This document shows, one piece after another, positions 752 through 33,453 of a DNA stretch of 33,453 bases (position 1 is the stretch's first letter; the number at the start of each line of letters is the position of its first letter). The translations under genes were made by a program, and so were the position numbers. Source of the DNA: Psammoneis japonica. Lineage: Eukaryota. The DNA lies in NCBI GenBank assembly GCA_008632985.1, contig QPGO01000163.1, positions 124,001-157,453 of the forward strand, given 5' to 3'. The notes below the pieces were generated by a model. That model made no database searches, was not told where the DNA came from, and was given only the letters and a program-made list of their open reading frames with translations.

Positions 752-833
752 TAATTAACTTAAGCAATGTGCTGCAGCATTTAAGGAAATCCAGGTGTCT
801 TGAAGAACACCCCGCACTATGCTGCTTGCATGC

Positions 834-4397: not shown

Positions 4398-4949
4398 TCC
4401 GTTTGGTTTTTTTGTCTTGTGTGCAGGTGCCTGGACAGATGCAAAATGCAAAGGGCAACAAGCATTTTCACAACGGATTGACAACGGACATCATGCAATT
4501 AGAAATGTCTGTCCCACTTGGTTGCTTTACGCACAATCTGGCTGGTGTTCATTGTGAGCGTGCGAGCGACTTCCACCAACGTGCTTTTAACAGATTTGAG
4601 GCGACTCCTAGAAGTGCAAAAAATTCTCAACGGAGATGCATCAAGCGCGAGCGCGCATCATGAACACTCACCAAAATGGCTCCAACAAGGACAACTTTGA
4701 CATTTCGCATTGTCACACGACAACAATTGGGTGCATTCATCAGGTCTTTTTTGTTCATTGTGTGACTCACTTGAATCGTAGATTCCCTGCCACTGCCTTG
4801 GCTTGGCTGAAACGCCAATGACTGTCACAGTGCAGAGCCACCGAAAAAGGCTTCAACAACCCAGTGCACGAATGTGTCTGATGCATGACACACACACGAG
4901 CATGTGTGTTCATGTGATGCTGCTGAGACAGCAGCCAGAAAAAACGGGA

Positions 4950-6340
4950 ACAAATCTGCAGATTAAATCTGTCCATTTTGTTCCCCAGCACTGCATGAAC
5001 AGAACAAAGGGGAAAAGCTGGTGGACAAAACATCTCCTCACAGCCATGAATCTGCCTGCTCCTGAAGGCTGCATCCCCTGTCAGTCTGCTGGGCATTTTG
5101 GGTTGCTCAGGATCTCCATGCCTGGCTGTGGGGCGCGCCCACATCAGCCAGATTCTTCAGAAGACAAAAGAGTTGCTGCTGCACACACGGCTGAAATCTG
5201 AAAATGGCGCTCATCACAAAAAGAGTGGTGACCCACATTTGGAAAGAACATCAACATCAGCAATCTGCTGGCTCTTGTTGTTGTCAAAAATCTTGACATC
5301 ACTGCCACACACAAAGTGGATCTGATTGAGATTTGGAGATGAGAGGTGATGAGCATTGTGGGCTTGCATGTTGCATCATGGCCATGAATGTTGAACCAAA
5401 GAGGATTGACCTCCTCAAACTCATGCTCTTTTGGCTTGGGAGAAGGCTTGTTTGATGCTTGGTCAACAGCAATGTCATTGGCCATGGCGTTGTTGGTGGT
5501 GTCTTTGCCTGTTGCACAGGGCCATGGCCATTGACAGAAAAAGATGCCATGGTGGGTTGGAAATTCTGTGGTGAGACTGGCATTGAAAACATGCAGGCAA
5601 ACTCAGTGCCATCTTGTCCAGAAAAGCACATGATGTTGCCATGCAATCAGCAGGCTCATCTGGGCTGTGGTCACAACTGGAATTGACATCAGCTTCACAG
5701 TTGCTCAACTCAGTTGGTTTGGCCAGCTCTGATGCTGGCCAGCTGCATTTTGAAGAGGTCAAGGATGCTCTGCACCACTTGGTTTTGGTGCCCACCCTGA
5801 CTTCAGGTTGCAACACCAAGTTGGCAGACTTGGCCTCAAATGTTCTTTCTCACTGCTCCTTCTCCTCTGCCCATCACAGTGCCCCATTGTTGAGCAGAGC
5901 TGCTGCCCCACACTGGCTCACCGATGGAGCTCCTCACTGGGGGTGCACGAGGGTTTGGGCTGGGCTGCTGACACTGGTCATTGTCAATCAACTGCAGGTG
6001 GTGCCATCTTCTTGCTTGCAAGGGTCCAACCCACAGTCTCCATGCTGTCATCACAAGCTGAGTTTGTTGCAGCCTCTGATGCCAAGTTTGTTGTGGCCTC
6101 CAATGGCGCACTCTTGATGAGCCATGCCAACCCACAAAGATGACCTCCCCGCTCATGGCCAGCACCAGCAGTCACCCCCCACCCTGTGCACCCATCATGC
6201 AGATGTCAACCATTTTGCTCTGCAAGAGTGGGTGGAACAAGACCTGCGGTGGAATGCACACCCAGTGGTTGCACACTCACCAATGAATGCAGTGTCAGTT
6301 TTGCTGCTGCCTTGTCGGTCGTCAGAAAAACATTTGTCTC
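4950..6340 (+). mobile_element. Highly degenerate Ty1/copia RT-RNase H remnant, copy 1
   Basis: Fragments HISQIL, LHFEEVKDALHHL, ARVQPTVSMLSSQAEFVAASDA and HFALQEWVEQDL occur in the expected order. Paralogous to 8040-8940. Confidence 0.75.
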
Positions 6341-8039
6341 ATGCAGAAACCATGCTGGATCTTGCACAGAACTGCTGTCACATGCAACAAAAGGACAACC
6401 ATCACTCAGTGATGAAGGAAGACTCACATTGACAATCATCAGCGCCACAACAGAAGAGGCATTTTTGCCAAATAGAGTGAAGCACTTGGTTGGCCGATGG
6501 AGACAAAGAAGGTTGTTGAGAACCGATGGGCATGGGTGCAAGCAGTTTGGAGCATCAACACAGCAGTCGTCAGTGGTTGTTGCTGACACAGGCAGAATTT
6601 GTACAAGAATCTATGTGGAAAATTTCTTGAGTCTGCAGAAAATTACAAAAAAGATCAATGAGCATGCAAACCATGAGGAGTCGATGCCAGTCATTTTCCA
6701 CTTAGAAACATTGCGGGTGTGCCATTGGTTGAAATGGGCAGAATGGTCTCAGGAGACCCAGCAAAGTGCTGTCTGACAAGGGCGACACCAGCACAAGAAG
6801 GTGCACAGAAACACACATGTGTCACGTCAGAGTTCTTGTTTTGCTTCCAGTCGCACGTCAATTGCATGCTCATGTTGTGTTTTGTGCTGTGCTCGCAAGT
6901 GTGGTGCCAAATTCATGATGTGATTTTATGGCGCGATTGCATTGTGTGTGTGAAATCAACATCCTCTGCAAGAAGTGTGAGACATGTGTGATTGTGCAAA
7001 ATGTGCACAAGTGCAATTGTTGCACAATTGAAAAACTCGTCAAGCGGAAGAAAAAAACACAAAGCACTCACAAAAGGAACTTTGTCCGCACGTTTTTGTC
7101 AGCACTTGTCAATTTTGCAGTTCTTGTCCTGGCATGGCCATCCACTGACACTGCAAAAACTTTTTGGTGCTGCAGGTTGCCAATGCACCACATTGCTGTC
7201 TTTGCTCTTGACTCATGTCCACACAACTGCAAGGAGCATGATGGGCCAAGGGGTGCGCAATTTTGAATGAACAAAAGAACCCCCTCCCCCCTCTTTGTGT
7301 GAGAAAACAATGCTTGCAGCTTTCTTTGTGGTTTGCACACACCTTGTTGTTGGGAACTCTTCAAGTGCTGGGCCTTTTGCCCATGAAGTGTTTTGTAGAT
7401 TTTCAGTTGTGTGCTCATGATTTTTGGGAGGCTGCTTCTTGCAAGCACCACAGCCAAGCAAAGTGGCACTGGAAAGCACACCATGACTGCTGGCTTGTCA
7501 AAGGAGGAATTTGCAGAAAAAAGCACTGGCACACAGAGATGTTGCTTTTCATTTTGCCTGCAATCACTCACCTCCAATGCCAGACTCTGTGGGTCTTTGC
7601 AGCTCTTGTTCCTGAGTCAGATTGACCATCATGCCTGCTGCCAAGTGAAGAGACCATGCATGACCCATGTGTCCCCAAAACACACAAGCTTGTTTGGCAG
7701 AAATTGGTCACTCTCAAGATGGTTTCCCACAATGGGAAAAAAGCAAGTTTGAACAACTCTCAATCACTGCCATGACCCCAATGGTGCTGCAGCACTCTCA
7801 ACAAGGCGCAGTCATGTTTTCATGCAAGAACAACCTGGGGGGTGCACCAAGAAAGCCAGCAAACTTTGCAATGATGGAGAGGCCCATGACCCAGGTTCAT
7901 CCAGGTGCTCAACCAAACACATGCAGCACTGGAGGAGCAGCTGAGTGCCTGCCTTTTTTTTGCTCTGGCTGCCCTGAAGAACAAGCATGCATGCAGAGTT
8001 AACATCAGCAGTGTCTTTGCTGAGGTGCCGCCACCCAAT

Positions 8040-8940
8040 CAGACTGTCTGTGTGCAAGTCAACAAAGTGTTTTAAAGCTGGTGGACAAAACATCTTGGCT
8101 GCCAACTGCCTGCTCCCTGAAGGCTGCATCTGCTGGTTTGTTGGGCACTGCAAGGTTGTCTAGAATCTGCACGTCTGTGCAGCACCCACATCAACCAGAT
8201 TTTTCAAAGGATGAGAGTCATTGCTGCACATGATGGTTGAAATCTGAAAAGGGTGCTCATGACAAAGAGTGATGGCAACCCACTTGAGGATCTGAATCAA
8301 GACTTGGAGAACAGAGGTGTCATCATCAACAAAAGAAGATGCCACAGTGGGCTGGAAGTTCTGTGGTGAGCCTGCGGCATTGAAAACATGCAGGCAAACT
8401 TGGCACCACCTTGCACAGAAAAAACATGCATTGCCATGCAATCAGTCAGTGAGCTCATCTGGTGGGCCATGGTCACAACTGGAGTTGACATCAGCCTCAC
8501 AGTCACTGAACTTAGTTGGCTTGGCTTCAACCATGGCCAGCTGCATTTTGAAGAGGCGCCAAGCATGCTCTGCACCATTTGGCTGCACACCGCATTTTCA
8601 GCTTGCAACAAGTTGGCAGACTCAACCCCAAACATCCTTTCTAGCTCTTCTCCTCCTTTTCTGCCAATCACAGTGCCCCATGGTTGAGTGGAGCTGCCTC
8701 CATGGAGCTCACTGGGTGCACCAGGAGTGTTTGGGCTGGGCAGCCGACACTTGTTGTTGTCAATGGATTGTGCGCAGCACTTTTTTCCCACTTGCAGGCA
8801 TGTGTGTTCATGTGGAAAAACAGGTGGGCCCAATCCACTGTCTGCAAAAGCTGAGTTTGTTGCAGCCTCTAATGCCAAATTTGTTGTGGCCTCCAACAGT
8901 GCTCTCTGCTTGCAGCCCATTCTTGTTGACGGGCCATGTC
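8040..8940 (+). mobile_element. Highly degenerate Ty1/copia RT-RNase H remnant, copy 2
   Basis: From 8145 the sequence translates ALQGCLESARLCSTHINQIF (cf. diatom copia ALQGHPESPRLW..HI..IL); LSAKAEFVAASNA follows. It shares DNA blocks with 5015-6100 (aaagctggtggacaaaacatc; gcattgaaaacatgcaggcaaact). Confidence 0.75.
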
Positions 8941-10154
8941 ACCCCGTGAGAAGATGATGTGGCCCCAATGCAAAAACAAGGATGAGGACATTGAAAACAA
9001 TCCTGATGCAGTCAAGGAACCAGCAGCTGCTTCTGCTGGAGTGATTGAAAGGCCCTCATTGCATTGTGTTGAACAACAGAGATCTTAAAAAAGTGAAAAA
9101 AGTGGGCGCAGTTGTCGCCTTTTTGTGTTTGACCTTTTTCAACTGTGTTCTCAACCTTTGCACAGGAATCTGCACTGAATGTGGGGGTGTGTGCTCAGCT
9201 GTGGTGCAGCAAGCAAGCAAAACTGTGCCGCAAAAGTTTGGCACTCTTGACAGTTTCTGCAGCTCCCCTCTCTGCCACCTGCGCCAGCTTTGTTTTGAAA
9301 GTTGTTGCCCAGCTGTTGTCAGGGTGCAGTCAGGAACTGACAAATTCAGTGCACAAGGTCTGTTGACATGCTGAACTTGCATGTGGTCTTGAGCATCATT
9401 GCACTTGTCAAGCGTTGCTCCTTTTGTTCTTTGCCATCTGCACTTTCACAATTTGGGGTGGGGACATGATCCATGTTGACTGCAGCACCTTGGAGGTCAG
9501 CATCATTTGTTGAGCTTGAGCTGCTGCAAGTGTGTTGTGGCAGCCCCAGAAATTTTTAATGAGTCGAGGACAGTGCTTCCAATTTGTCCTGAACCATTTC
9601 TTTCTTTGGGGCTGATTTTTGGAGCACGTCTGCATCATTCGAACAAAGCGACAAGTTTGTTGTGCAGCATGTCTGCGTCTGTGCTCTGTGGCCATCAAAA
9701 GCAGCATTGAACTCACATTTTCACACAAAAAAGAGTGAGCAACGAGGAAGCATCAGACTTCTTTCTTCTTTTGGGGGTCGTGAGGTGATGCCTCATGCTC
9801 GTGTGCCGCCGTGCTGTCAACATCATTTTCATGTCATGTTTTTTATGTTGGCATCTCAGTCGTGTCATTCACACCACACATTCCGTCCTCGATTTTGCGG
9901 GGGGGGGGCGCTGTTTTACTTAAGGCCCCCCCACGAAATTCAACCTCATTTGAGCACCTGTGACATCCCCCCCCCTCATGCAAAAAATCCGTAGAAGTGA
10001 CAGTCGTCGTCGCGCGCCATCTTTTTGGCCTTTTTCTGGAACGCTTTTCACAACAACGACCCTCATCGTTGTTGCAAGTGCGCACTTCATGCTTCATCGA
10101 TGCCTTTCCTTTTCAACAAGGGTTTGTCAAGAGCCCCTTTGCATTCTCATTGCC

Positions 10155-13100
10155 ATGCCTGCACTTGAAACAATGGGGCCGAAAAGCCAGTCAAGTCCTT
10201 CGCGTCTGAAGAAGTTGAAGCAAAATGCATCGAGGCCGACGCCCCACCCCTTGAACAAGCACACGAAAGAGGGTGAAGCGGAGCGACGTAGAAAGCAAAA
10301 GGAAATTGACGAAGCCAACAAATTCAAATGGAGGTGTGATCAACACAAGAAAAGCAAGAAGATTCGTGAAAAAGTCACAACTCGGGTTGACTTCGGAACG
10401 AAAACGTGCAAACGGTGTGTCACAGGGCCGGGTTGCAAGAAGGGTCACGACGACACGTGCCACAAGAATCCAAGTGCTTCAAATTACAAGCCACCAGAGA
10501 AAATTGTCATTCAAGTTCTGAAAGAGGTAGAGCCAGATTTCCTCATGGCACTGCCACAAGATTGCAGAAACAATCTCATCGCGAGGAGCCTTTTGGAAAG
10601 ATCTTTTTTCTCTTCGCCGGAGGGAAGTGCAGAAAGTGTGCAAGAAGCATTTTTCGATGCATCTGAGTCCTCAGTAGATTCTAATCCACCCAGTGACAAC
10701 AACAATTCAGTTGGGGATGCTCTCAGCAGCGTTGAATCCAAGGATGCATTGAAGCCGTTGCTGCACAAGAAAATGACTTCGTCGCATCTAAAAAAAGCGA
10801 TGCCCGCCGTGATGTCGACGTGGAGCACAAGCAAGAAAGAGCAACTCGCTCAAGACAACATAAAAGTGCCGCTTCCAATTTTGGCATTGCTGGAATTCAT
10901 TCACATGCAATGCCCAAGAGTTTGCACCGACTCCAATGGCGCCAAGAAGCTTGGTGGAGGTGAACAACGTATTTCTTGGTGCCGCGACCACTTTCCGCGT
11001 GGAAATGTTGCGTTCACGGTGCCGTTGGCGGGCAGGAAAGAAAATGAAGTTCCCGACCCAATGTGTGAGTCCATTCAAGGCTCAACAACATGTTTGACTC
11101 GGTGGGAACTGAACATGCCAGACTTGCCATTGAAGTGTTTTTCATGCAGCGACGGATTTCTGGAGCACACGAGGGTGGAGTGCGGCGGCACCAGGTTTGC
11201 AAGCAGTGCGACGCCCGTTTTCAGAATAAAAGGTCACACGGGTTGGGAGCATGGCATCACATGCAAGTGCTCTAATTGTGGAGAGCTTGTCAAGTCGTGT
11301 GATGGTAGACTGCTGCGTCATTCTCTACAAGACTGCGCACGTCGAAGCTTCCCAGCAGATCCCTTGTGTTGCTCGAAGCCATCCTTCTTCTTGCTTCACG
11401 AAGAGGTGTCCTTTCTGCTGGAGGAGGCTGCTCTAACAGAATCAAGTGCACAGTGGGTGTCACGAACGCTCTTCCGAAGTCAAAACCATCGGCACGAAGA
11501 ACTGGAACTGTCACATTGCAGCTCTGACAAGAGTTGCGAGGACAAACCTTTTCCAGACTTTCCATCAATTGAAGAGTGGCGAGGACAGTGTCCGCCATCA
11601 AGTGCTCAGTTGCTGGATCTTTGCGAAGCAGCCAACTCCTCCGATCTTGCCGCGTGTGGCGTGAGCGACGACGACCGTCACAAGAGAGAAATGCAGTCAT
11701 GCGGCTGCGAAACTTCTACAGCCTTCGATCACACCCACGCAATGTTGAGCAACTACCCATCATCACTGGGCGCTCAAGCTTGTGCCACTCAGTCAACTGA
11801 TGCGGGATTCATTACCTGGCTTGGACTTGTCGACTCTACCGCAATGTCAGACAGTGCCCACGGCATCGAGCAAACTGCAAGACGGCCAAACTTTAACCCG
11901 AAGCATGTGCACACGGATGCATGGCCCAATCTTGATCCATTCTTCAAGACAACACACGGATTTGCAATGATCGGTCGACTTGGCTTATTCCATGCAATTC
12001 AGCGCGTCACCAAGTTCATGCGGAAAGATCACAAGGATTTCAACAAAGCTCTCCGCTCTTTCTTGAGCTGCCTGTACAGTCTGAACCAAGAGGATGAAGC
12101 AGCCGTAGTGGCAACACTACGAGACGGGACAATGAATGGCCGCATCCACCAGCCTGATGAGATCTCGGATTTGCAGCACAGCAAGAAGTGGATGGACCGC
12201 TGTGGGCAGTACATCCGAAAGATTCCTGTTCCAGGAGAGCTCGCGAGGATTAAGTTGAGGGACTGGTGGTGCCTGTACAAAGTGAGCAACAGTGATGGTG
12301 AGCCAGCAGGACAAGGAGAGCTGGACAATGGAAAAACCCTGTTCATGGAAGGAGCGAGACAAGCAGTGAGAGCGTTGACGGAAAAAGCTCAGCATCTGCC
12401 AGAGATTGTTGGCGACTGCCACAAGAAACTCACCGCATCTGCCCGATCGAAACACAAACTACCGCGATACATTTCTGAAAAGGGTGAGTCTTCATTGGAG
12501 AAGTTTCACCATCTGCTAGCTCATTTTGGAAACATGGGCATGCGGCGAACGCTCGCCGACAGTTTGAACCTCCGCGGCACGTGTCGATGCAATCTCAAGC
12601 TGTGGCACAAACTATTCGGAAGAAATGCACCCGAGATCCCAAGCCATTTTCAAACTGAACCCATTCATTACAACCATCTCAAGTTGCTAGAGATCAACCG
12701 GAGGTCCGCCAAGCATGGATCCAAAGCACCGCGGCATGAGAATCTACGAGATTGCCCGGAGTGCAGGGGCGAAGAGTTTTTGTCCGAGTGCCTTTTGTCG
12801 CAAAGAAAGAGACGAGCACAATATCCACCCCATCCAACCAACAGTCGCTGCCAATGCCCCAAATGTGCTGCAAATCCGATGCCTCTTCCTCACATCCAAC
12901 GAGCCATTTCACGTGAGCAGTCGGCGGCATCTGCAGTGGCGCCAAATGAAACGGCACCTATGAACAATGACACTGGTGACTTTGACGCTGCTGAGTTTGG
13001 TGTCGACTTTGATGAGCAAGAGTATCATTCTGTGTTTGAAGACACTCCTCCTCAAGAGCAACTTCCCCAAGAAACACGAATGATCCGCGACTTCGCCGTA

Positions 13101-13475
13101 CAGGACGCCTTCCAAAGGCATCAAGAATTGAATTCCGTACCGCCTGCCCCAATCCTCCCCATGCCGGCACCAGCTCTACCATTGCTGCCTCTGCTGCCTA
13201 TTCCTGTAACAAATTTACCAATGTCATTGCAGCAACCTTTGGGCCCACCTACTATTGCGTCGTCGATGCCATATTCAACCTACTGCCAACCCGTTTCTCT
13301 TGGGACAGCGAGTTTTGCAGCATCTGCTCCTGTGCTGCCATCCGCTGTCACTCCAGCTACAAAGAGACGAAAGGTCAAAGAAGAAGAATACTGCTGTGAG
13401 GGAAGAAAAACTCATGTCGAAAATGGTCGTCGGGGGCGGGTCGCTCATACCTTGTGGTGCAACCGAGGAAAGTAA
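10155..13475 (+). CDS. Dada/DUF6729-like DDE transposase, copy 1 (frame open, but probably inactivated by Tyr->Cys/His changes)
   Basis: Zn-binding CxxC...CxxC region followed by SCDGRLL..L...ARRSFP (DUF6729-like). Candidate catalytic motifs AFDHT, HTDAWP, RLGLFH (DxxH position) and KGESSLEKFH (cf. RGxxSLExFH). N- and C-terminal Cys/His clusters. ATG at 10155 is in frame with the track ORF 9960..13475. The superfamily assignment is from motif memory only. Confidence 0.6.
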   Translation: MPALETMGPKSQSSPSRLKKLKQNASRPTPHPLNKHTKEGEAERRRKQKEIDEANKFKWRCDQHKKSKKIREKVTTRVDFGTKTCKRCVTGPGCKKGHDDTCHKNPSASNYKPPEKIVIQVLKEVEPDFLMALPQDCRNNLIARSLLERSFFSSPEGSAESVQEAFFDASESSVDSNPPSDNNNSVGDALSSVESKDALKPLLHKKMTSSHLKKAMPAVMSTWSTSKKEQLAQDNIKVPLPILALLEFIHMQCPRVCTDSNGAKKLGGGEQRISWCRDHFPRGNVAFTVPLAGRKENEVPDPMCESIQGSTTCLTRWELNMPDLPLKCFSCSDGFLEHTRVECGGTRFASSATPVFRIKGHTGWEHGITCKCSNCGELVKSCDGRLLRHSLQDCARRSFPADPLCCSKPSFFLLHEEVSFLLEEAALTESSAQWVSRTLFRSQNHRHEELELSHCSSDKSCEDKPFPDFPSIEEWRGQCPPSSAQLLDLCEAANSSDLAACGVSDDDRHKREMQSCGCETSTAFDHTHAMLSNYPSSLGAQACATQSTDAGFITWLGLVDSTAMSDSAHGIEQTARRPNFNPKHVHTDAWPNLDPFFKTTHGFAMIGRLGLFHAIQRVTKFMRKDHKDFNKALRSFLSCLYSLNQEDEAAVVATLRDGTMNGRIHQPDEISDLQHSKKWMDRCGQYIRKIPVPGELARIKLRDWWCLYKVSNSDGEPAGQGELDNGKTLFMEGARQAVRALTEKAQHLPEIVGDCHKKLTASARSKHKLPRYISEKGESSLEKFHHLLAHFGNMGMRRTLADSLNLRGTCRCNLKLWHKLFGRNAPEIPSHFQTEPIHYNHLKLLEINRRSAKHGSKAPRHENLRDCPECRGEEFLSECLLSQRKRRAQYPPHPTNSRCQCPKCAANPMPLPHIQRAISREQSAASAVAPNETAPMNNDTGDFDAAEFGVDFDEQEYHSVFEDTPPQEQLPQETRMIRDFAVQDAFQRHQELNSVPPAPILPMPAPALPLLPLLPIPVTNLPMSLQQPLGPPTIASSMPYSTYCQPVSLGTASFAASAPVLPSAVTPATKRRKVKEEEYCCEGRKTHVENGRRGRVAHTLWCNRGK

Positions 13476-13729
13476 GGCGTTCTTGGTATCTTTTTGTTTT
13501 GTTCTTTTTTCTATTTGTGTTGGTACACATCACATTACCACTTCCCAGCGTAGATGCATTAATTCAGGATTAGGATCCAACACAGTGGCAACAAACATTT
13601 TACACTTGTATAATTACACCGGTCCACCACACCAACCATTACCGTGCCGTACCGACCAACATTAACGGCACGGACAGCACGGACACCGAGGTCCCATAAA
13701 GCCGGTAGCCTGTCGCAGCCCTACAGCAG

Positions 13730-14180
13730 AAACAAAGGAATAGAAACAACAAAATTGAGAACACGACAACAAAGAAACAGACCCATGACACTCGACACAT
13801 TTCTATTACCTTATATCAATGCTTTTGGAGTGCCCTCGTGGTGCTTGTGGTTGATTGTATTAAGCAACACTGTCGGCCGAAAACAAAACAAAACACTGTC
13901 CAATTAAAAGGAATGGAAACAACAGAAATGTAGAAGGTGCCATCAAAGAAACAACCCCATCATACTCGATATATTCATATTACCTTGTCTTAATGATTTC
14001 GGTGCGTCCTCACAGTCCTTATGGTTCATTGTTAGCAGCAATCTTGTCGGCGGCAGAAAACAAAACTCAAAACACACGCTCTATTTAAACACAATAGAAA
14101 CAAAAGAAATTTAGGAGACACCAACAAAAAAATACAACCATCATACTCAACACAGTCTTTATACCTTATATCAATGCTGT
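13730..14180 (+). repeat. Diverged tandem repeat, about 2.5 units of 173-181 bp (also at about 18300-18745)
   Basis: aat[a/g]gaaacaa recurs at about 13739, 13912 and 14093, each followed by cat.a.actc.a and taccttrtmt.aatg. Confidence 0.7.
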
Positions 14181-14474
14181 TAACCCTCGTATCGTCACAG
14201 TGATGGTCGATTCATGAACGGAGCTAGTCGCCATTGTGCTGCGACGGTTCGAGGGTGGTACGGTAAGTGCGCGTGAGGATTTTTCCTACTGCATGCAGTG
14301 TCTTTTCTGTCTGTCCGTTAGCGAGTGGTCTTAAACGTTGCTGAGTCATAAATGGCTTGAAGACAAAATTATTCTTAAATGTTGCATCGTCATAATTGGG
14401 GATTGCTGAGTCATAATTCACTGAAGGCATGATGTGATTGGCTGAAAATACAGCGTACAAGAATGGGACAACGG

Positions 14475-14665
14475 NNNNNNNNNNNNNNNNNNNNNNNNNN
14501 NNNNNNNNNNNNNNNNNNNNNNNNNNNNNNNNNNNNNNNNNNNNNNNNNNNNNNNNNNNNNNNNNNNNNNNNNNNNNNNNNNNNNNNNNNNNNNNNNNNN
14601 NNNNNNNNNNNNNNNNNNNNNNNNNNNNNNNNNNNNNNNNNNNNNNNNNNNNNNNNNNNNNNNNN
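14475..14665. other. Assembly gap (191 N)
   Basis: Run of n characters. Confidence 1.
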
Positions 14666-14735
14666 CTTCACACTTCATTGACACCTTTCCTTTTCAACAA
14701 GGGTTTGTCAAGAGCCCCTTTGTGTTCTCATTGCC

Positions 14736-22764: not shown

Positions 22765-23632
22765 TGCACTGGAAGTTGCCGCAAACACGGGGAAAGTGTG
22801 TCAGATGTTGCCTGGCATGCCATCACGCGTCTCATGTGACATGGATCAAACAACATGCGCAGGACATTTAAATCGCAGAATCTTTCCGTTGAGAAAAGTC
22901 AAATTTCCTTTTCCAGCTGCATGCGCGCATGTTCACATGAACAATTCTTCAATGCCAATCGCATTCAAATCTTCAAATTTAGAGATGATTGATGAGTGGA
23001 CCCCGCAGTCGAATTCTCCATGCCCGAAAACATGGGAACCGACACTTCATCTGCTGAAAAAGTCCCGCTGGTTGTTCTGGTGGCATCTAAAATGTGCTTG
23101 CATTTTCGCGCAATTTTTCACCGATTTCTCCCTCCACCATGGCGGACCCTGTGGCTGCCCCCACCGGGGAAGGACATTCACTCCAGCAACCTTGGACGCC
23201 TGACAACATTGTCAGGGAAATGCCAGATGTGTCAGAATTGCTTGGAGTGGGAACAGACATGTGTTTTGCCTGTTGAAGACATGCCGCGAAACCCGGCACC
23301 ACAGTCTGCTCCCGAAGCACCCTCTGTTCCAGTGCTTCCCCCTTCCCAAGTCTTCCTGAGCAGCCACCAGTGGCCAGAGAGCTTGAATGTGACTCAGCTT
23401 GTCCTGCAAGGCATCACAACAAAGACAAGCCTGAAAAATTCCGAGCGGACTTTGTCGTGATGGCGGATGCCCTTCAGCATTTGTGCTCCATCTTGATGCA
23501 TGCCAAGGGAAGAACCAAAACAACAGCTGCATCAATGAGAGGAACAACCATTAGAAAGAAATTTCTGCAGCAATCTTGCATCTGTTTCATTGGACAGCAA
23601 AATAAAAACCATTGGAACAGTTGAGGAACGAC

Positions 23633-23996
23633 AAAAAAAAAGTCAAACGTTCTCGGCGACATTGTCCCACATGTTGTCACTGTGCAAAAAGCTGACAGAG
23701 ACTGCTTTCAAATCTTTCATGTGTTCCACCTTGTTTTGTTCAATGCACGATAGAATGCCATTTTCGTTTTGCAACGCGACATGCAATTGAGCAACGAAGT
23801 TGCCAAAACTGACATTGTAAAAAAAAGTCAAACGTTCTCAGCGACATTGTCCTGCATGTTGTTGCTGTGTAAAAAGCTGATAGACTGCTTTCAAATGTTT
23901 CACATGTTCCACCTTGTTTGTTCAAAGTGTGACAGAGTGCCGTTTTGTTTCGCGACATGACATGCAATTGAGCAACGAAGTCACCAAAACTGACAC
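23633..23996 (+). repeat. Tandem duplication, 185-bp period
   Basis: gtcaaacgttctc at 23642 and 23827; gcaattgagcaacgaagt is present in both units. Confidence 0.85.
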
Positions 23997-24420
23997 ATTG
24001 TTTGGCATGCATCGTCACAGTCTAATCCATGCTTTCCATTCAGAAGGAGCCCAACGGATTTGCTTTCCAGCATCTTTGTCACTGTCCACAACTGCGGTGA
24101 CACCGTTGTCGGTGGGGATGAACGACACAGTCGGAATGGCCGCTTCCAACTTCAGAACCGCTGTCAAATGCAGCCCAGAATGATGCCATAAAATGGCAGC
24201 TTCAGAAAACAAAAGATGAAAAAGCAGTCTGCAGTTGGCGCAACGACAACAGAGACAATGGCAGAACAACATTCAGCGCCAACAAAAGGACACTCACACA
24301 CGTCATCACATGTGTTCTGCTCACTTTCGCTGTCCATGTCAACAGTGAAAAAATCATGCAAATCACGAGCCATTCGGCCGAATTTGAGCTAAAAAAAGCA
24401 GCAACCAACCACTCTCAAGC

Positions 24421-24527
24421 AAAACGCACAACGATTTTGGCGCGCAACTGCGGGGTCTTTTGGACACGTCGTTGACGATTCCAATCTGCCAGAGGTGTCG
24501 AAACAAAAATGTGCCTTTGGAAAGCTC
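24421..24527 (-). repeat. Solitary inverted partial copy of the 29890-30745 repeat unit
   Basis: The reverse complement reads agagctttccaa...gaccccgcagttgcgcgccaaaatc...cgtttt, as in the array units. Confidence 0.75.
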
Positions 24528-24569
24528 TAACTCTCCAGACAATCAACATAAACTGTAAAATGTGTGTGT

Positions 24570-25960
24570 GTTGTTTGCTGCAGGCACTCTTTGACCGTTG
24601 GTGGCGAAAGGCCGAAGGCACAAATGCCACCAATTTGGTTGTGATTGAAACAAGTGCAGCAACTGGCCAGCAAAAATGAAACCCTCAATTGCTCACATGC
24701 GTGTGGATGCTCGCAACACAGCTTCCAATCACTGAATGCACGACACACCCTGAACAGATTTGCCACCATGCCACAACTCCACTCAACTGCAACGCAAACA
24801 CATTTCATTCGAAAATTCTGTAGAATTTGGATTGGTGCAAGTGGGGCACCTTGAGCAGGTCGACATGCCTGTCTGACACATTGCATGGCCATGAACCCTT
24901 TTTCAGTGTATGCTGCACGGACCTTCCCATTTGGAAACCGGCCTTGTTGGAGCTGCAACAAGCAGTTGTCAATGCCGCTGAGTTCTTGAAGCCTTGCATC
25001 GGCTCTGAGCAGTCAAAAGGGAAAGCAACATTTAGTTTGGGTGTTTTCATGTGACTCATTGGTGCACACAAGGTCGCTGCTTGCCTTCCAGCTGACACTG
25101 GGCCCCACACAATTGAGACTCCATTTGGCAAGGAGATGTTGAGGACCTTTGTGCCATCCAATTTTTTGTGCTGCATGTGCGCTGACCGCTGCACGTCGCA
25201 GGCGTTTGGCTTTCTAGGTGCATGGACCCAATCTCCAATGGGACCTGTTCCTGGGGTCTCCATCTCAAAGATGGAGCTGTCCATGAATCCAAGCATGTTG
25301 AGCACACCATTCGCAAACCTGCAAACCCAGCACCAAACGCTGCACTTGATTCAATGGACATGTCCAACGTGAAGGTGCAGCTAATTTTCGTTCAATTGCA
25401 GCCGCAAATCGTGGAAAGTCATCCACCCATCGCTCAAGACTGTTTCTGTCCAAGAGGTGCCCAAACCGGTGCTCAGTGTGCCGAAGGAACCAAGGGCATC
25501 CATGCAACCACCACCTGGCGTTGCCACCAAAGAAACCTTCACACAATCTGACGTTGTCGAGTCCAGTCGCAATCTTTGTCAAAGAAAACAAAAAGAGCTC
25601 TTCACCTCCAAACACATGCATTTCATTGCCGGCTGCTGGAACTCTTGTGGCTTGTGGCAGACCAAAAAGTGCACACAGGCGGTGCACCTGCTCACGGTCA
25701 AACCGTGTGCAAATCCTGAGCCACACATTGGAGCAGTTGTCAATTGGCCTGTGTCTAACTCACTCAAAGCTTGGATCCATTTCAAGCTCTTCTTGGAATG
25801 GAATGTCAGCAAGGGCTGCATCTTGCCTCACCCAATGATCTGCGAGACGACAACCTGCAACCAAAGCTGTCAACGAGCAAGCCGCACCAAAATTGAAGGG
25901 TTGTTCATCATCCAATTCTTCTCCCAAATCCAAATCTGCAAGGTCATGCTCATGATTGAT
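24570..25960 (-). pseudogene. PIF/Harbinger DDE_Tnp_4 transposase, frameshifted and Tyr-depleted
   Basis: Motifs in the expected order: TRFDREQVHRL, EELFLFSL, LGFMDSS, QRSAHMQHKKLDGTKV..LPNG..VWGPVSAGR, VAVEWSCGMV, LLASCCTCFNHNQ, FGLSPPTVKECL. Confidence 0.85.
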
Positions 25961-26344
25961 CAGAAGAAGAAAAATGGCAAGAAATGCCGTCCAATGAATG
26001 ACTCCTTTCAAGGACATGGACCAAAGCAAATGGCAAGCATGCAACAAAGATTGACCGCCGGCGGGAAGCGCATGATTTCTGCACTGGTGAGAAGTGCACC
26101 TCGTTGCAGCACGGTGGCGATGTCCATTGTGGCGGTGAGGAGCCCTTGGCATTTCCACTGCAGTTGTTTTGTTCTTTCTCCATTTTTTGTACATGCTGGT
26201 TTTGCAAACGGGAAGCCGCTTTGAACAACCCACACGACATGGTCGCTGCTCTTGTCGCACGACTTCGGAGCTTGCGGCTTCACTTGAAGAGATGATTTTC
26301 TCAAATGGCAGAAAATTTCAACACATTTGCGCATGCAGACAGAC

Positions 26345-26475
26345 TTTCCCCTGTTTCCAGGGAAAAGTTTTCACTTTCCCCATTTTCACTTTCCCCGTTT
26401 TTACTTTTCCCGGATTTCTTGGGAAAGTTTGAACTTTTCCCATTTTTGCTTTCCCCGTTTTTTGCTTTCCCCTTT
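26345..26475 (+). repeat. Cluster of about 15-bp TTTT[C/T]RCTTTCCCC repeats, possibly transposon subterminal repeats
   Basis: ttttcactttcccc x2, tttttacttttccc and tttttgctttcccc x2. Lies upstream of the Harbinger ORF; a related motif occurs near 29355. Confidence 0.6.
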
Positions 26476-27305
26476 TTTGCACAACGTTGTAGAAATCTTT
26501 TTTGTTGCAACCATTTGTGTTGAGGCTGGACAGATGTTTGGTGCCATTTTTTTAAATGGCTCGTGATTTTTGAATTTCCCCGCACTTCGCCCATGTTATT
26601 TTGCGAAGCCTCTGAGCACCCCCAAACACATGTGAGAGTGTCCAGGCCCCATCAGGGCTGTCGGACCTTTGTGTGAACTGCACATGTTGACCTTCAAACG
26701 CCAATTGTCATGCTTGCCTTGGTTGTCACATGCGACAAACCGCCACTTTCCACCAAAATTGGACTGTTGCGGTAGACAAGCCACAACTTTCCAGGAAATG
26801 CCGACAATTGGCGTTTGACTGGCTGTTGGCATGTCTGCAGTTGTCAAGCTACACATCGCGCATGGTCGCAACCGTCACATGTGCATTCTATGTTGTCCTG
26901 CAAAGAGACAAAGTTCGACCTGTCGCTGATTTTTTTTTGGCGAACGCGCGCATCATTGGTGTTACAAATCCGGGTTGTTTTTAAACATTTACGAGCTCTA
27001 AATGAAATCGACCACTGAACAACAATCCATCCTTAAAACTGAAACCGTCATTGTAAAAAACATTGTTTTTATTGCGGCAAATCGTTTTTATAAGAACAAA
27101 ACCATTTTTGTCACTTCAACAGTCCCCGCTCGCTCGCATCCACTGTCACCCAGTTTCTCTCTCTCCCCCTCTCTTCAATGCTTGTTGTCTGACCATTCTT
27201 TTGTCATCCAGCTGGCTTGTCATTTCAAGAATGATTTGTTTGCTGGCTCTAGAGCACTCTGCAACATACAGCCCTGTGCAAGCGGGGCTCTCACATTTCT
27301 CAGCT

Positions 27306-27701
27306 GACGGGTTCCAGTCCCAGGTGGGACTTTTTGTGACATTGGGCCCGCAGAATTCTACGTGCGAGCTCTGCAGTAAAATTGTCAAGCAATGCACACA
27401 TGAATGATCGCCAACAGAAAAAGAGGCAATTTTGCGAACGTGTCTTCTCCTCCACACTTGAAGCACATTCTTTGCAGCATGCCCGGGTGTGTTCTTTAGT
27501 CATTAAAGAACACACCCAGTGCATTTTTGTTGACGTGGGTGCAGACAACAGAAAGCCTTTGGCTTCGCAAAACAGGCAGTGTGGAACAATTTTTTACAAT
27601 AGAGCACGTAGAAATGTGCGTGCAAAACATGCGACGGATGACAAAAAATAATTGTGTCACAGTTCAGCAGTGCGAGGTCCCACCTAGAGCTGGAACACGT
27701 C
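27306..27701. mobile_element. MITE family copy C (396 bp), 4-bp TSD AGCT
   Basis: agct|gacgggttccagtcccaggtggga ... tcccacctagagctggaacacgtc|agct. Confidence 0.9.
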
Positions 27702-27712
27702 AGCTCCCCACC

Positions 27713-28540
27713 ATGTCGACAGCTTCTTCTCCTGTCGATTTGTGCTCCTCACCCAAGAATGGTGACGACGGAGCCAACAACAATGTGCCATTGCGCTCTG
27801 CACTAAAAGCAAAAGCAACGCCTCCGAGCTTCTCTGCTCCAAAGGAGAGGCTGCTCCACTCGTCATCTGAGTCTGACAACGATGAGCTGTTTCGTTCATC
27901 TGGATTGAACGTTGCTCGTCCTGGTGCTTCCGAAAAAGTCAAGAAGGAATCTGCCAGGAAGAAGTGCAATGAAAACTGGATGGAGAAGTGCAACCAAGCA
28001 TGGGATCTGATGGAAACTTCAATGCTTGCGTTGCTTTGCCCGACCAATCCTGTTCATGGCTGGACACTGCAACAGCAGGAGGGAGTCGATGAATGCGATG
28101 AGCATGTGTGCCAAGGCCACTCCCCCGACAATTGGGAAAAGCATTTTGGCACCAGCCATGCCTTGACAAGTGATGGGATTCAACTTGTCTGCCCCATCAT
28201 TGCTGCCTTCACAGACGCCAAGCGTGACAGTGCCAAGCGTGATGACAAGACGAGGAAGAAACAACATGGTCACTCCAGCGTCGGTGGCATCCACGCGGCT
28301 TCTGCAGTTGCTTGCCCTCCCACCAAGCGCGGCAAAAGCAACAAGTGTAGATTCTCTTTTGCAGCCAATGGGCTTCCATTGAGTTCTGAGTTTCAATGCA
28401 AAACCTGACTCAATCAGGCATTGTGCCATTCATTCATTGAGTTTGCCAATTGCAAGTTGGAGCATGGAGCATCAGCAAAGAACAGGGGCCACTTTATGGC
28501 AGGCAAGGCGTGGTTGAAAGCTTGCAAGGAAATTCATCGG
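27713..28540 (+). pseudogene. Degenerate protein-like ORF of unknown family
   Basis: MSTASSPVDL... has protein-like composition but no Tyr in about 230 codons. It continues in frame after a TGA at 28406. Possible splice donor gtgagt at 28541. Confidence 0.4.
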
Positions 28541-29889
28541 GTGAGTGTCCACTGCTTGCATCTCATTGCAGTGTTTTCCAATCTTGTGCTCATGCTGATT
28601 TTGGTCTGCTGTTTTCCACAAGAGCGCAAACCATGTTGATTCAGCGGAAAGTGCCTCTCATCCATCTTGAGTTGGTCCTGAAATGATGGAGCATTTGGCT
28701 GTTTACTTTGGCACAGGTGGCTTCCATGAACATGTCTTGCAAATGCAGGCATTGTGCCGGTGGCTTCCCCATGCCATGCTTGACAGCCGGTGCCGCATCT
28801 CTGGCACTTTGCCATTGAAGTTAACTCGAGAACCATCACAGCTGTGCGAGCAACATCATCACACCATTTTGCCAAGCCATTGCAGTGAGATGACATTCCC
28901 ACTCAACATTTTATGAGAAGCTTGCCATTTGCAGTTTAGCATTCCGCAGCTACAATGTTGTGGTCTCCTGCCGTCGCTCCACTGCTGAAGAATTCTTTAC
29001 ATGAAATGCTCGAGTGCACTCCATGCATGCTCCAGTGGCTCTAGCCAGCTGCTCTCTAGCAGCAGCTGCCTCTCCACTGGAGGGCTGCTGCTGGAGCAGA
29101 GAGTGGAGCAGCTGGAGCTTGCTGGCAGCTAAGCTGGTGGCCCCATCTCACAAAGTGCGAGTGCCAAAATCCCATCAGGCAACATGAAAGACTCGTGGCT
29201 CATGATGGCAACCGTGGCTGAGTTGTTTGTTGTGGTTTCTCCCAAGGGAATGGATGAAGGCCAGGCGTCGCATTAAAAACGAGATTTTTTTTAATGATGG
29301 TTTCAATTTTAACATTGATGGTCGCAATGAAAAGATTTCTACAAAATTGTGTTTTCTACTTTCCCCGTTTTCAGGGGCATGCGTTGAATCATGACCTTGT
29401 CATTTGGCGCCATCATGTCAGACGCTTGACGTGCAATTTTGCGGCCCGCATGTGGCCGCAAAATTCTCATCGCAAATTTTTGCGACCCACATGTGGGCCA
29501 CAAATTTGCCATGCTTCTTAAAACAAAGCTTGTCTTGTTGCTGTTTTTGCGTGGGAAAAAATCAATGTTGTGACAGCAGTGTGGCATCCTGTCATTTGCT
29601 TCACCGTGGTGAAAACCGCAAGCCACAAGCATGCGACGGAAGTGTGCCGGCTCCGTGCTCTCATTGGTGCCATGCTCGCCATGCATTGTGTGGTCAGCAT
29701 CAGATGACAGCATGGAGGCGGAACGCTGCATTTTTGAGAAATGTCGACGATTGCATCATCGTCGTGCTTCGATCGCGGTGCGCGGTGCCGATGTGGGAAT
29801 GTGGACAATTTTTGTGTTCAAAAACAAACACTGACAAATGGCCTTGTTCAAATCGCGTGGCAATTCCAGGACAAATGAGGGGGTGACCC

Positions 29890-30745
29890 TCTTAAGCAGG
29901 CGTTGCTTTAGAAGTGATTAGAGTTGTGGGACAATCAATGGCAGTGACATCATCTGCAGAACAAGAGCTTTCTAAAGCTGGTTTTATCATTTCCATGGTC
30001 AGATCCGAATTGGCGCCGAGACATCCAGACGACCCCGCAGCAGCGCCAAAATCGTGGCACGTTTTGCTCAAGCAGGCGTTGCTTTAGAAGCAATTGGAGT
30101 TGTGGGACAATCAATGGCAGTGACATCATCTACAGAGCAAGAGCTTTCCAATGGTGTCTTTGTCATTTCTGTGCCCCTGTCAGATCCGAATCAGCATCGA
30201 GACATCAAGACGACCCCGCAGCTGCGTGCCAAAATCCTGGGGCACGTTTTGCTTAAATGGGCGTTGCTTTAGAAGTGCTCAGAATTGTGGGACAGTCAAT
30301 GGCAGCAAGACACCTGCAGAACAACAGCTTTCCAATGGTGTCTTTTTTATTTCCATGCCCCCAGCAGATCCGAATCAGCATTCATGCATCCAAACGACCC
30401 CGCAGCTGCGCGCCAAATTCCTGTTGCATTTTGCTCAAATGGGCGTTGCTTTAGAAGTGCCCAGAATTGTGGGACAATCAATGGCAACAATTTTGTCTAC
30501 AGAACAAGTGCTTTTCAATGGTGTTGCTTTTGTTTTCATGCCTCAAGCACAACCGAATCAGCGTTCACACATCCAAACGACCCCGCAGTTGCATGCAAAA
30601 TTCCTGGCGTGTTTTCATGAACCAGGCGTTGCTCCAGAAGCACCAACAGCTTTGCAACAATCAATGGCGATGCTTTCACTGCATCTACAGAACGAATGCT
30701 TTCCAATGGTGTCAATTTTGTTTTCACACCTGATGTACATCCGAT
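29890..30745 (+). repeat. Diverged tandem array, about 4.5 units of 176-185 bp
   Basis: cgttgct at 29901, 30077, 30262, 30444 and 30627; units share caatcaatggc, gctttccaatggtg and acgaccccgcag. Confidence 0.9.
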
Positions 30746-30839
30746 CTTGTGGCTTCCTGCAGGTCGAATGCCAAAGTCAGATGAGCCATTGAAAACACGC
30801 TGTTTGACCCAAATGTGAACTTGCTAAACAGCAATTAGA

Positions 30840-31960
30840 TCCAAGCCAACAATGGGAAGAAACCAATCATTTGGAACTTCATTTTGTGGATGGTTTGGTG
30901 GTGGCATTGGATTTGGCAGGCTTTTTGCCCAAAGAAGAAAAAACTTCCTCAAACACGCTCGTCCTCTTTTCTGCTTTTTTCCACATTGCTCTTGAGCATG
31001 CACAGCTCCCGCAACGTTTCCACATCCAGCTTGCACTTCTTGGATGCTTGCAGCTCAGGGGAGCCGAAGGCCACTCCACTTGATAGATTTGAAAACAAGG
31101 ACTCAGCCCCTTTCTGGGCGTCCTCCAAATTCTTCACAAAATCCCTTGACCGACAGTCTCGCTTGCTGATCCATCCAGGTGCCCAACAGCTGCAACTGTG
31201 GTCAGCTCAACGTCACAGCTGCAGGCTGAGTGCTTGCCTCCATTGAAAGGAGCTGGAGGTGTGAGACCAAGCTCCGACTCACACCTCTCGTTTGTTGTTT
31301 TTCTCATCTTGCTGCTGCTTTGTTGCGCTCCTCTTGAGTCTCATCTTTCTTTGCTGCCTGTGCCGAAAGCCATGCTGCATGGAGAGTCTTTGCCAGAACC
31401 TCACATCCCGTTGCGTCCTTGTCAGCTCCTTTCCCCGCCTTTGCATCATGCTTCTTGGCCAAAACACAAATTCTGCGGATGTTTGCTTGGCGAAAATTGC
31501 AAATTTTGCTTTCTGCCTGCTCTGGGGCACTGCAGCCTCTGGCTGGTCCATCAACAGGATCATGGAACAAGCCAAAAACCTCCTGCCATCTTCGATCACT
31601 CTCACCATCTGGCATTGGCAAGTGGGCATTTCGCGTGCTGATCAGCGTCAAAAGATCCCAACACAGCTCTTGGCTGACCTCTTTTGTCAGGTTTGGCAGG
31701 CGCCTCTTTCCAGCCATTGCCCCTCAATGTCAGCCTCCTTTGGGATGTTTGGAACCTCCAACAAAGGTTCTCTGTCAGCCATGTTGTTGCATGCAGAGGG
31801 CTTCACCCCAACAAGTGTCACCTCCCCATCAACACAACCCTCCTCTCCAGCGGCATGCCCAGTTGGTGGAGAGTTTTCATCTCCAACACCAAGTTCATCT
31901 GGGTGCATTAGAGCATCAAGAGCACTGGCGAAGCCACAGGTTGTTTTTTTCTCTGCCATG
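30840..31960 (-). pseudogene. Degenerate ORF, possibly a Myb/SANT-like Harbinger accessory protein
   Basis: Frameshifted protein-like fragments, including DLLTLISTRNAHL...RRWQEVFGLFHDPVDG and a charged KKCKLDVETLREL tail. The family call is weak. Confidence 0.3.
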
Positions 31961-32234
31961 GTGCTGGTGTCACCGCATCTCATGGCCCGTCGACATCTTT
32001 TTTCTTTTTTGGAGCTGAGGGTTCTCGAACAATTCATGTGAGCATCTTACGAGAGGATTGCGCAGGAGATGTGCCACCGATGTTCCGAGAGAAAATGACT
32101 TCAAGTGCTGAAAATCGGCTCACAAGTCATGTGATCGGCAAAATGACGCGACTTCGTTGGACTTCGCACGGCTTCGCGAGGCTGCCCGCCAGCTCATTGA
32201 ATCTAATGACCCAAAATGCCTGATGAGCAGAAAA

Positions 32235-32585
32235 TGTCATGAGTTGTCGAAATTGTCGTGAGTTGTCGTGAGTTGTCATGAGTTGTCGTGAGTTGTCGGA
32301 GTTAAGTGAGAAATGTCGTGAGTTGTCGTGAGTTGTCGGGAGTCAGGTGAGAAATGTCGTGAGTTGTCGGGAGCGCTTGCACATCATGTGCATGCTGCAA
32401 GCAATTAAATTTGACAATTTGTGTCACTTCATCAATGTGCACATCCCAAAGATTTGTCGCGAGTCAAGTGAAATTGTCGTGAGCAGTCGTGAGTTGTTGT
32501 GAGTTGTTGTGAGTTGTCGTGAGTTGTCGTGAGTTGTCGTAAGTTGTCGTGAGTTGTCATGAGTTGTCGTGAGCTGTCGTGAGTC
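32235..32585 (+). repeat. 10-bp minisatellite (GAGTTGTCGT)n in two clusters
   Basis: Clusters at 32235-32372 and 32455-32585 with a short unique spacer between them. Confidence 0.95.
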
Positions 32586-33453
32586 ACAAGTGCCATTTAG
32601 GAGTCATTGTGCTTTCAGCGATGAGAATGCCTCGCCACATCTTTTTTTTTTAATGTGTGTTTTCAACAAATGGAAATTCACACATGTGTGTTGTGCTGTG
32701 CCATTGGTTTAGCGACAAAACACGACAATTGACGGCGATTGTACATTGTCGGGGATTGACAATTTTGAAAAGATGGTCTTGAGATGGCGGATTCGGGTGA
32801 ATGAGACAGGCACATGTGCTCCATGACTGTGTGCCTCTCTGACACATGTGTGTCAACTGACGCGTTGGACACACCGAGAACCGTTGGGTTTGTCCCCATC
32901 AGCGATGATCGGGTCTCTCCTCGGTTTTCTCACAACCTTTGTCAAGTCATCTCAAGCTAGATCTTGCACTGTATTGCAGTCATTGTTGTGGCTTGTTCAT
33001 TGCATTGTCAGTTTTGTGACAACGCGAAGAGTGCTCGTGCAGAAAAATTTCATTCAAAATCGATCAGAATCGCAGCGCAATCATGCTCGTGAAATTGGCG
33101 ATTCGGAGCAACGTTGTTTGAACTCGAGCTCTTGTTGCTGCTGTTGAATTCGTTCTTGTTTGGTTGTTGATTGTTCTCATTGTGGATCAATTGGGAGTGC
33201 CTTGTTTCATTTATCTTGTGGATCATTGATTGTTTGATTGCTGAAATTGTTCATCGCCATTGTAAGAAGCCTTGGAGAAAGCGGTGTTGAGTGTAAGATG
33301 ACCAAAATTCGTGGATTCTGAGTTGCAGGAAGTGAACTCAATCACCTTTGATGATGGCACCAAACTCTCAAAAATGTGTCCTGTTTTACAGGAGAGCATG
33401 GAATTGAATCATCATTGCACGTGGAGGACAGGTTCCGGAAGGTGGCAAGACAA

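Follow-up and report, generated by a model that had tools for sequence, protein, structure and literature searches.

Transposon-derived DNA of a probable diatom carries a likely footprint of TpA-directed hypermutation

We analyzed a 33453-base stretch of contig QPGO01000163.1 (assembly GCA_008632985.1; in the following, the window), which carries two copies of a 4.4-kb element, the probable remnant of a PIF/Harbinger transposase and an intact helicase-like open reading frame (ORF), and in which the dinucleotide TA is severely depleted. We interpret this depletion as the footprint left in the long term by a locally targeted hypermutation of transposon-derived DNA, specific to TpA and running from A:T to G:C, a reading which we consider to be correct with a probability of about 0.8. 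Between positions 4400 and 33453, TA occurs 345 times where 1922.8 occurrences are expected (observed/expected 0.18), in line with the original prediction, which was made from the sequence alone and described the repeat DNA as nearly free of TA and rich in TG and CA. Over the whole window the observed/expected ratios are 0.22 for TA, 1.56 for TG, 1.54 for CA and 0.65 for CG, with TG and CA ranging from 1.3 to 1.9 times expectation; those of AA (1.27), TT (1.29) and AT (0.86) are ordinary. The GC content, about 0.47 over the window with its single gap of 191 N (positions 14475-14665), is maintained at 0.44-0.53. The most heavily converted DNA is found at positions 3791-10084, a region with old internal repeats in which, according to the dinucleotide ratios and the comparison of a repeat pair, TA and CpG are both depleted. 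The 1-kb intervals from 5001 to 9000 have ratios of 0.00-0.09 for TA, 0.11-0.31 for CG and 1.85-1.94 for TG+CA, and the longest TA-free stretch of the window (1509 bp, positions 4964-6473) is located here, with 0 TA where base composition predicts 91.8. The adjacent positions 3791-4400 have 4 TA with 52 expected. In the old repeat pair 5534-6114 / 8329-8907, which has 118 differing columns, there are 20 double differences in which one unit has TG and the other CA.

The spectrum of the underlying change was determined from the two copies of the 4.4-kb element, which are both located on the forward strand. Copy 1 (positions 10085-14474), with a 1173-amino-acid open frame (9954-13472), is converted in its 5' half and largely spared in its 3' half; copy 2 (14666-19038), in which the frame is split into three ORFs, is converted along nearly its whole length. 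The copies are 96.65% identical over 4393 aligned positions, and their global alignment of 4395 columns comprises 4244 identical, 25 gapped and 126 substituted columns. Transitions account for 121 of the substituted columns, and 112 are interchanges among TA, TG, CA and CG, so that the predicted TA-specific excess is indeed present; 14 are of another kind, three of them adjoining an indel. TA is common to both copies at 58 sites, occurs in copy 1 opposite TG or CA in copy 2 at 47 sites, and shows the reverse arrangement at only 4. At 25 further sites one copy has TG and the other CA, yielding 51 single and 25 double sites that derive from TA. CG stands opposite TG or CA at 11 sites, and decay of CpG therefore covers 11 of the 87 interchanges between pyrimidine-purine (YR) steps. 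Within the segment 13440-14190, where about 20 sites with TA opposite TG or CA had been predicted by eye, exactly 20 were counted, and the nine Tyr codons nearest the end of the copy 1 ORF all correspond to Cys or His codons in copy 2, the one before them being kept.

From the dinucleotide table of the two copies we calculated rates, which are our own arithmetic and are to be read as ratios within the element and not as rates per generation. At TA, at least 101 changes in 268 site-copies were found (0.38), at CpG 11 changes in 428 site-copies (0.026) and at all other positions 11-14 changes in 8740 position-copies (0.0013-0.0016). By this estimate, the rate at TA exceeds that at other positions by a factor of about 240-300 and that at CpG by a factor of about 15. 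The change is restricted to TA. Decay of 5-methylcytosine (5mC) was considered as a cause and rejected, as already argued in the original prediction, since it consumes CpG and not TA and, at the observed CpG rate, should have produced only about 0.07 double sites with TG opposite CA, compared to the 25 seen. CpG decay still contributes to the composition at positions 5001-9000, as indicated by the low CG ratios there.

A comparison of two copies is unable to separate the loss of TA from a gain of TA as caused by fungal repeat-induced point mutation (RIP), and a site with TG opposite CA could stem from either TA or CG. Outgroups were therefore used. Three relatives of the 1173-amino-acid frame (P0001-P0003) share 39-44% identity with it. 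At 23 columns with Tyr in all relatives present, copy 1 has Tyr in 3, Cys in 8 and His in 4, and copy 2 has Tyr in 2, Cys in 8 and His in 5, whereas residues other than Tyr are retained at 27-72%. Among the conserved Tyr codons, those at 11064, 12420 and 12789 read TGY in one of the copies and CAY in its counterpart (Y, pyrimidine), and these are all the sites with TG opposite CA that fall on conserved Tyr columns. All three must descend from TAY, the two copies having been hit separately once they had parted. Hypermutation has accordingly acted in situ after the copies separated.

An unrelated family shows the same. On the reverse strand, positions 24530-25759 hold a probable frame-shifted remnant of a PIF/Harbinger (DDE_Tnp_4) transposase, which was assigned by the Pfam domain of its relatives and by consensus alignment. 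Its direct match to Pfam DDE_Tnp_4 is weak (E = 0.053, 13.6 bits, below the cut-off of 24.8) and was the only one above chance level when 16 and then 136 ORFs of the window were searched against Pfam. Using its 181-amino-acid ORF (24808-25350) as query, 91 relatives were obtained, and five of the six that were scanned carry DDE_Tnp_4 above the cut-off; one cluster of relatives includes a member from the diatom Extubocellulus. The remnant aligns to its relatives along the DDE_Tnp_4 domain in three frames. None of the 16 Tyr-consensus cells is kept (5 are Cys, 3 His), compared to 11 of 17 for Phe and 4 of 4 for Trp, and the closest relatives, P0073 and P0074, have Tyr where the remnant has Cys or His. 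The motifs EWSCG (24770-24784), PPTVKECL (24581-24604) and QRSAH (25177-25191), all on the reverse strand and proposed at the outset to have lost family tyrosines, correspond to the consensus IExxYG, PPxLExYL and QRxxYxGxKK, respectively. In both families the outgroups thus point to TA as the ancestral state, and not to TG, CA or CG as would have spoken against the prediction, and the comparison with these relatives indicates that the direction of change is loss of TA, opposite to that of RIP.

The products of the change are symmetric between the strands, with 21 TG and 26 CA among the 47 sites at which only copy 1 has kept TA, again as predicted. Runs of TG or CA that would indicate strand coordination were not found among the conversions; the two products are interleaved (25 runs, 22.3 expected). 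The hypermutation is patchy and includes a copy-specific tract of about 2 kb. In this tract (positions 16700-18746, forward strand), copy 2 has lost 40 TA, 20 to TG and 20 to CA, and the copy 1 counterpart (12118-14181) has lost none (40 vs 0, binomial p = 1.8e-12). The 3' half retains 45 TA in both copies in addition to the 40 found in copy 1 only; by a hand count of the listed positions, the last thirteen of this half (14190-14456), which lie beyond the tract, are kept by both. In the 5' half, where both copies are converted, 21 sites have TG opposite CA and just 13 TA are shared. The tract with 40 conversions in one copy and 0 in the other fits episodic action as in some lines of the alga Bigelowiella natans (see below), without proving it.

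The change further depends on the neighboring base, the preference being for TA followed by a pyrimidine (TAY). Of 44 changes, 35 have C or T after the mutated A, compared to 52 of 114 TA that were kept (p = 1.5e-4). In reference DNA a pyrimidine follows 703 of 1318 TA, whereas it follows 135 of the 422 TA that survive in the depleted DNA (p = 1.8e-14). At 27 informative sites the favored context is present on one strand only, and at 20 of them this strand took the change (p = 0.022).

An internal control is provided by an island of ordinary composition at positions 752-3790 (reverse strand), in which TA ratios are 0.48-0.65. It harbors an intact ORF of 898 amino acids (837-3530, reverse strand), classified as helicase-like by its open frame with a P-loop and by the domains of its relatives, which carry ResIII and Schlafen-group-3 helicase domains. 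Eight of nine conserved Tyr columns are kept in this ORF and none has become Cys or His. As the non-coding flank at 3531-3790 has 26 TA with 27.6 expected, the sparing of the island is not due to codon selection. All named relatives of the ORF are from raphid pennate diatoms (Nitzschia inconspicua, Cylindrotheca, Seminavis; 34-41% identity). The family has many paralogues in N. inconspicua and is present in marine metagenomes, and diverged read contigs also align to the island, indicating paralogues in the present organism as well, although the depth of Logan contigs does not equal copy number. Among 69 helicase-family relatives in named diatoms, none has Cys or His at more than 2 of 13 Tyr-consensus columns, a result of little weight, since annotated proteins favor intact genes. 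As a second control, four metagenome loci encoding relatives of the 4.4-kb element have TA ratios of 0.59-0.73 and TG and CA ratios of 1.05-1.4. In the window, the Harbinger remnant and the multi-copy element have been hit, and one intact ORF has been spared.

A process of this kind has already been described. In a bioRxiv preprint dated 2026-04-14, Mettrop et al. report de novo TpA to TpG/CpA hypermutation of integrated viral DNA in the chlorarachniophyte B. natans (10.64898/2026.01.13.699255). According to the portion of this preprint available to us, on which all statements about it are based, 231 of 302 new mutations in mutation-accumulation lines fell into integrated giant-virus and virophage regions, corresponding to about 6e-7 per site and generation; with a single exception, the mutations in the viral regions were A to G or T to C, and every such AT to GC change was at TpA. 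Hypermutation of these regions was seen in 11 of 15 lines, the main target was single-copy, and domains of DDE endonucleases and reverse transcriptases were over-represented in coding sequences low in TpA. When the low-TpA criteria of the preprint are applied to our window, 26 of the 29 1-kb intervals from 4001 onward have a TA ratio of at most 0.43 and 18 combine this with TG+CA of at least 1.52, the passing intervals forming clusters at 4001-9001 (6 consecutive), 19001-25001 (7) and 28001-32001 (5); the plain observed/expected ratio used for this purpose may differ from the preprint's own formula. Given the preprint and the three clusters obtained by its thresholds, the kind of process is not new, and the statement in the original prediction that no endogenous mechanism had been described is out of date, as the phenomenon, if not the enzyme, is now on record (10.64898/2026.01.13.699255). 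The window probably represents a second lineage in which it occurs.

The two cases share the almost exclusive A to G or T to C change, always at TpA and with TpG or CpA as product depending on the strand, a rate orders of magnitude above that of the remaining DNA (in our case as a ratio within the element only), the patchy, apparently non-constitutive action, the clustering of 1-kb intervals with a deficit of TpA and an excess of CpA and TpG, and the enrichment of DDE endonuclease domains in low-TpA sequences. They differ in that the B. natans mutations were observed de novo, whereas only the footprint is available here, and in that B. natans belongs to the Rhizaria and the present organism is probably a diatom. 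There, a single-copy giant-virus insert with a rho TpA of 0.45 and also a virophage insert are the proven targets, compared to transposon remnants with TA ratios of 0.00-0.2 here, and neither the preference for the base after TA nor the link to CpG loss is mentioned in the available portion of the preprint.

With regard to mechanism, the process would be the same as that seen de novo in the B. natans lines. At a 5'-TA-3' step, a change of the A in the top strand would give TG and a change of the A in the bottom strand CA; as neither product would be a substrate any longer, TG and CA would act as a sink and CG would never be made. The underlying chemistry may be an enzymatic deamination of DNA adenine to inosine with a preference for TAY, inosine being read as G at the next replication, a proposal to which we give somewhat less than even odds. 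Targeting would operate through silent chromatin or marks of foreign DNA rather than through sequence homology. The description of the process as repeat-targeted or as a reverse RIP, which had been part of the original prediction, is not supported: an island with paralogues in the reads is unmutated, 40 changes vs 0 separate near-identical twins, and hypermutation in B. natans falls mainly on a single-copy target (10.64898/2026.01.13.699255).

Several points weigh against this interpretation. The sequence is unable to separate a change at A from one at the paired T, and the lack of strand-coordinated runs is contrary to what processive single-strand deaminases would leave. The TAY preference is also unlike the known substrates of ADAT enzymes, which carry G, A or C after A34. 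There is no certain host gene in the window, so that the case for 'targeted' stands on a single island within it and on relatives belonging to other organisms. The assignment to a diatom is drawn from homologues of mobile elements, namely the named relatives at 34-41% identity and the one diatom member of a Harbinger cluster, and falls short of proof. The reads discussed below come from one sample, probably the source of the assembly, and are thus not independent, and Logan contigs hide heterogeneity among the raw reads. Finally, the precedent from B. natans is an unreviewed preprint (10.64898/2026.01.13.699255).

The alternative that survives best, although we regard it as rather improbable, is a modification of the thymine of TpA, e.g. 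by an oxidation of the TET/JBP type to 5-hydroxymethyl- or 5-formyluracil, which would mispair with G and lead to T to C, or A to G on the other strand. Dinoflagellates are known to modify thymine with a preference for TpA, and 5-formyluracil has mutagenic effects. Being symmetric, the data do not tell a hit on A from one on T, and the context rule may equally be read as R-T-A (R, purine) with the T mutated. However, the analysis gave no evidence of such a base or enzyme in this organism, and the authors of the preprint favor adenine deamination, naming an ADAT2-like protein as candidate (10.64898/2026.01.13.699255).

Less probable still, and in our view unlikely by a wide measure, is a decay of methylated TpA analogous to that of CpG, in which the adenine of the palindromic TA would receive a mark in silent chromatin and, once marked, would be deaminated to inosine at an elevated rate. 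TA and CG are both palindromic YR steps with one common sink, and their depletion is correlated over 33 1-kb intervals (Spearman 0.67, p = 2e-5). This joint depletion may reflect shared targeting or only the age of the DNA. Moreover, N6-methyladenine of eukaryotes is known to reside at ApT, not at TpA, and TA outpaces CpG about 15-fold in the young pair of copies.

We consider it very improbable that RNA A-to-I editing of the ADAR type fixed by reverse transcription, error-prone synthesis by DNA polymerase eta (Pol eta), or selection against TA accounts for the pattern. Pol eta favors WA (W, A or T), and its WA to WG errors had been put forward in the original prediction as one candidate; since AA is unaffected, with AA/TT ratios of 1.27/1.29 and at most 2 of the 126 substituted columns of the AA-vs-AG type, this candidate is to be abandoned. 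ADAR, in turn, favors U before the edited A (10.64898/2026.01.13.699255), but RNA editing is unlikely, given that neither strand is favored among the products and that the changes were made in situ once the copies had parted; the remnant of a DNA transposon is affected as well. Selection against TA is unable to explain either the loss of conserved tyrosines in the elements' own proteins or the approximately 240-fold excess in dead copies.

A sequencing or assembly artefact, in which a modified base at TA in repeats would be misread or the sequence changed during assembly or polishing, fares no better. The original prediction had asked for the sites to be confirmed in raw reads. Reads were available as three runs of one sample in the form of Logan contigs. 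Contigs of 2287, 1753 and 1328 nt built from one of these runs (X1) match positions 4363-6649, 6740-8492 and 8465-9792 with 0 differences and all at one depth level, which matches the local total, covering about 5.4 kb of highly TA-depleted DNA. A misreading on both strands would leave a mixture of TG and CA at every site and is incompatible with contigs free of differences; in addition, TG and CA are interleaved along single sequences, and the changed DNA bears frameshifts and old diverged repeats like truly decaying DNA. What favors an artefact is that all read support comes from the probable source sample, by which an assembly error is excluded better than a chemistry-wide artefact, and that the two copies border an assembly gap. 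Least probable of all, and already refuted by the Tyr (TAY) ancestry in the outgroups of two families, is that RIP of the fungal type or another C to T process made the TA of copy 1 from ancestral TG or CA: the 47 sites taken from the pair alone give no direction, but TA is nearly absent and not enriched, and the TG-vs-CA sites require a TA ancestor.

The process we favor, TpA-directed hypermutation, shares features with several known systems. As in RIP of ascomycetes, dense transitions are confined to mobile DNA and follow a dinucleotide rule, both strands are hit, and coding capacity is lost. RIP, however, changes C to T at CpA, thereby making TpA and AT-rich DNA, the opposite of what is found here, and it requires duplication and a pre-meiotic stage, whereas no dependence on homology is seen in the window. 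Deamination of 5mC likewise converts a palindromic YR step to TG or CA and has left its own traces in the window (the 11 sites with CG opposite TG or CA; CG at positions 5001-9000); it differs in the step that is consumed and in its lower rate in the copy pair. The animal defenses AID/APOBEC and ADAR also edit foreign or repeated nucleic acids by a short context rule, which for ADAR is the preference for U before the edited A. APOBEC enzymes deaminate C in single strands and leave strand-coordinated clusters, unlike the window, where no such clusters occur and an A:T pair is affected; ADAR acts on RNA, and the substrate here is chromosomal DNA.

No report on TpA hypermutation in diatoms, a point on which the original prediction had called for a literature check, was found in the full-text literature, mostly outside subscription journals. 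If the source of the window is a diatom, TpA hypermutation also shapes, to saturation, the repeats of a far larger and ecologically dominant group of algae, and the same footprint in two distant lineages permits a comparative search for the enzyme. It might even be speculated, although we think it rather doubtful, that TpA-directed DNA editing is an old genome defense common to distant algae of the SAR group (Rhizaria, diatoms), which would hit silenced mobile DNA regardless of copy number, alongside cytosine methylation, by means of a natural DNA adenine deaminase preferring TAY. Such a natural DNA adenine deaminase, if real, would be the first of its kind and of interest to both genome defense and base editing. 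The present analysis adds details that can be tested, namely the TAY preference, the joint loss of TA and CpG, the kilobase-long copy-specific tracts and the sparing of an intact neighboring element. There are also practical consequences. TA-free DNA lacks TAA and TAG stop codons and therefore contains long false ORFs, so that gene finders would over-predict; accordingly, 33 frames of 150 or more amino acids in the window are free of stops, many of them overlapping across both strands, with TAA and TAG nearly absent. Furthermore, the loss of TA hides transposons from domain searches.

The original prediction referred to the two copies of the 4.4-kb element as transposases, a label that is not supported, as no recognizable transposase domain was found: Pfam yielded no family in either the 1173-amino-acid ORF or its intact relatives, and the Protein Data Bank (PDB) no sequence match. 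An AlphaFold model based on 4 sequences was unusable (mean predicted local distance difference test score, pLDDT, of 31). The sole lead comes from the Atlas, where features match DUF6729 / Mutator-like clusters, the recognition being under the tool's own bar. Together with P0001-P0003, the frame at 9954-13472 forms a family of about 1090 amino acids with several Cys-rich motifs and a strongly conserved core, which has been encountered solely on contigs of 2-5 kb, from marine metagenomes and from Logan. A metagenome scan with alignment A3 did not return a relative; a scan with P0001 returned the 4 loci mentioned above. One of these (L004:1-1580) is intermediate in composition (TA 0.59, CG 0.48, TG and CA 1.4), and could represent a copy that has been mildly affected in a different organism. 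The 191-N assembly gap at 14475-14665 is bordered exactly by both copies, and the pair around it could represent a genuine tandem, a pair of alleles, or a join made in scaffolding or assembly, between which the window alone does not allow a distinction.

Neither the 898-amino-acid ORF nor the 1173-amino-acid frame had a self-match in the protein collection, which would be surprising if the window came from the annotated B. natans genome, and no Bigelowiella protein was among the relatives found. The Atlas match of the helicase-like ORF was to unnamed oomycete and fungal clusters only; the element may be an undescribed mobile element or a defense gene of pennate diatoms. Palindromic units of the 'TGTTGAAACTT..AAGTTTCAACA' type are located beside the island at positions 3798-3889 and 4277-4336, and may represent element ends or hairpins; one read contig omits positions 3818-4269, between these units. 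Of the 40 read variants listed among 386, 39 fall within positions 369-4346; only 7 of the 40 are TA-related and 15 are transversions, which serves as a further control.

Neither tRNA genes nor Rfam families were detected in the window. Further TA-depleted repeat DNA occupies positions 19039-33453, with TA ratios of 0.04-0.26 in every 1-kb interval, and in each of the three repeat pairs compared in this region TG-vs-CA is the most frequent adjacent double difference (12, 5 and 3 cases). By repeat search, this region contains 180-bp tandem repeats (29867-30744) and two blocks of a 10-bp minisatellite with a unit close to TTGTCGTGAG (32243-32626). At the other end of the window, positions 1-751 form a TA-poor flank (4 TA, 55.4 expected) with a 387-bp direct repeat (1-379 / 388-775). 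Its two units differ at 1 of 388 columns, and this single difference, TA in one unit and CA in the other, could be one fresh event of the TpA process.

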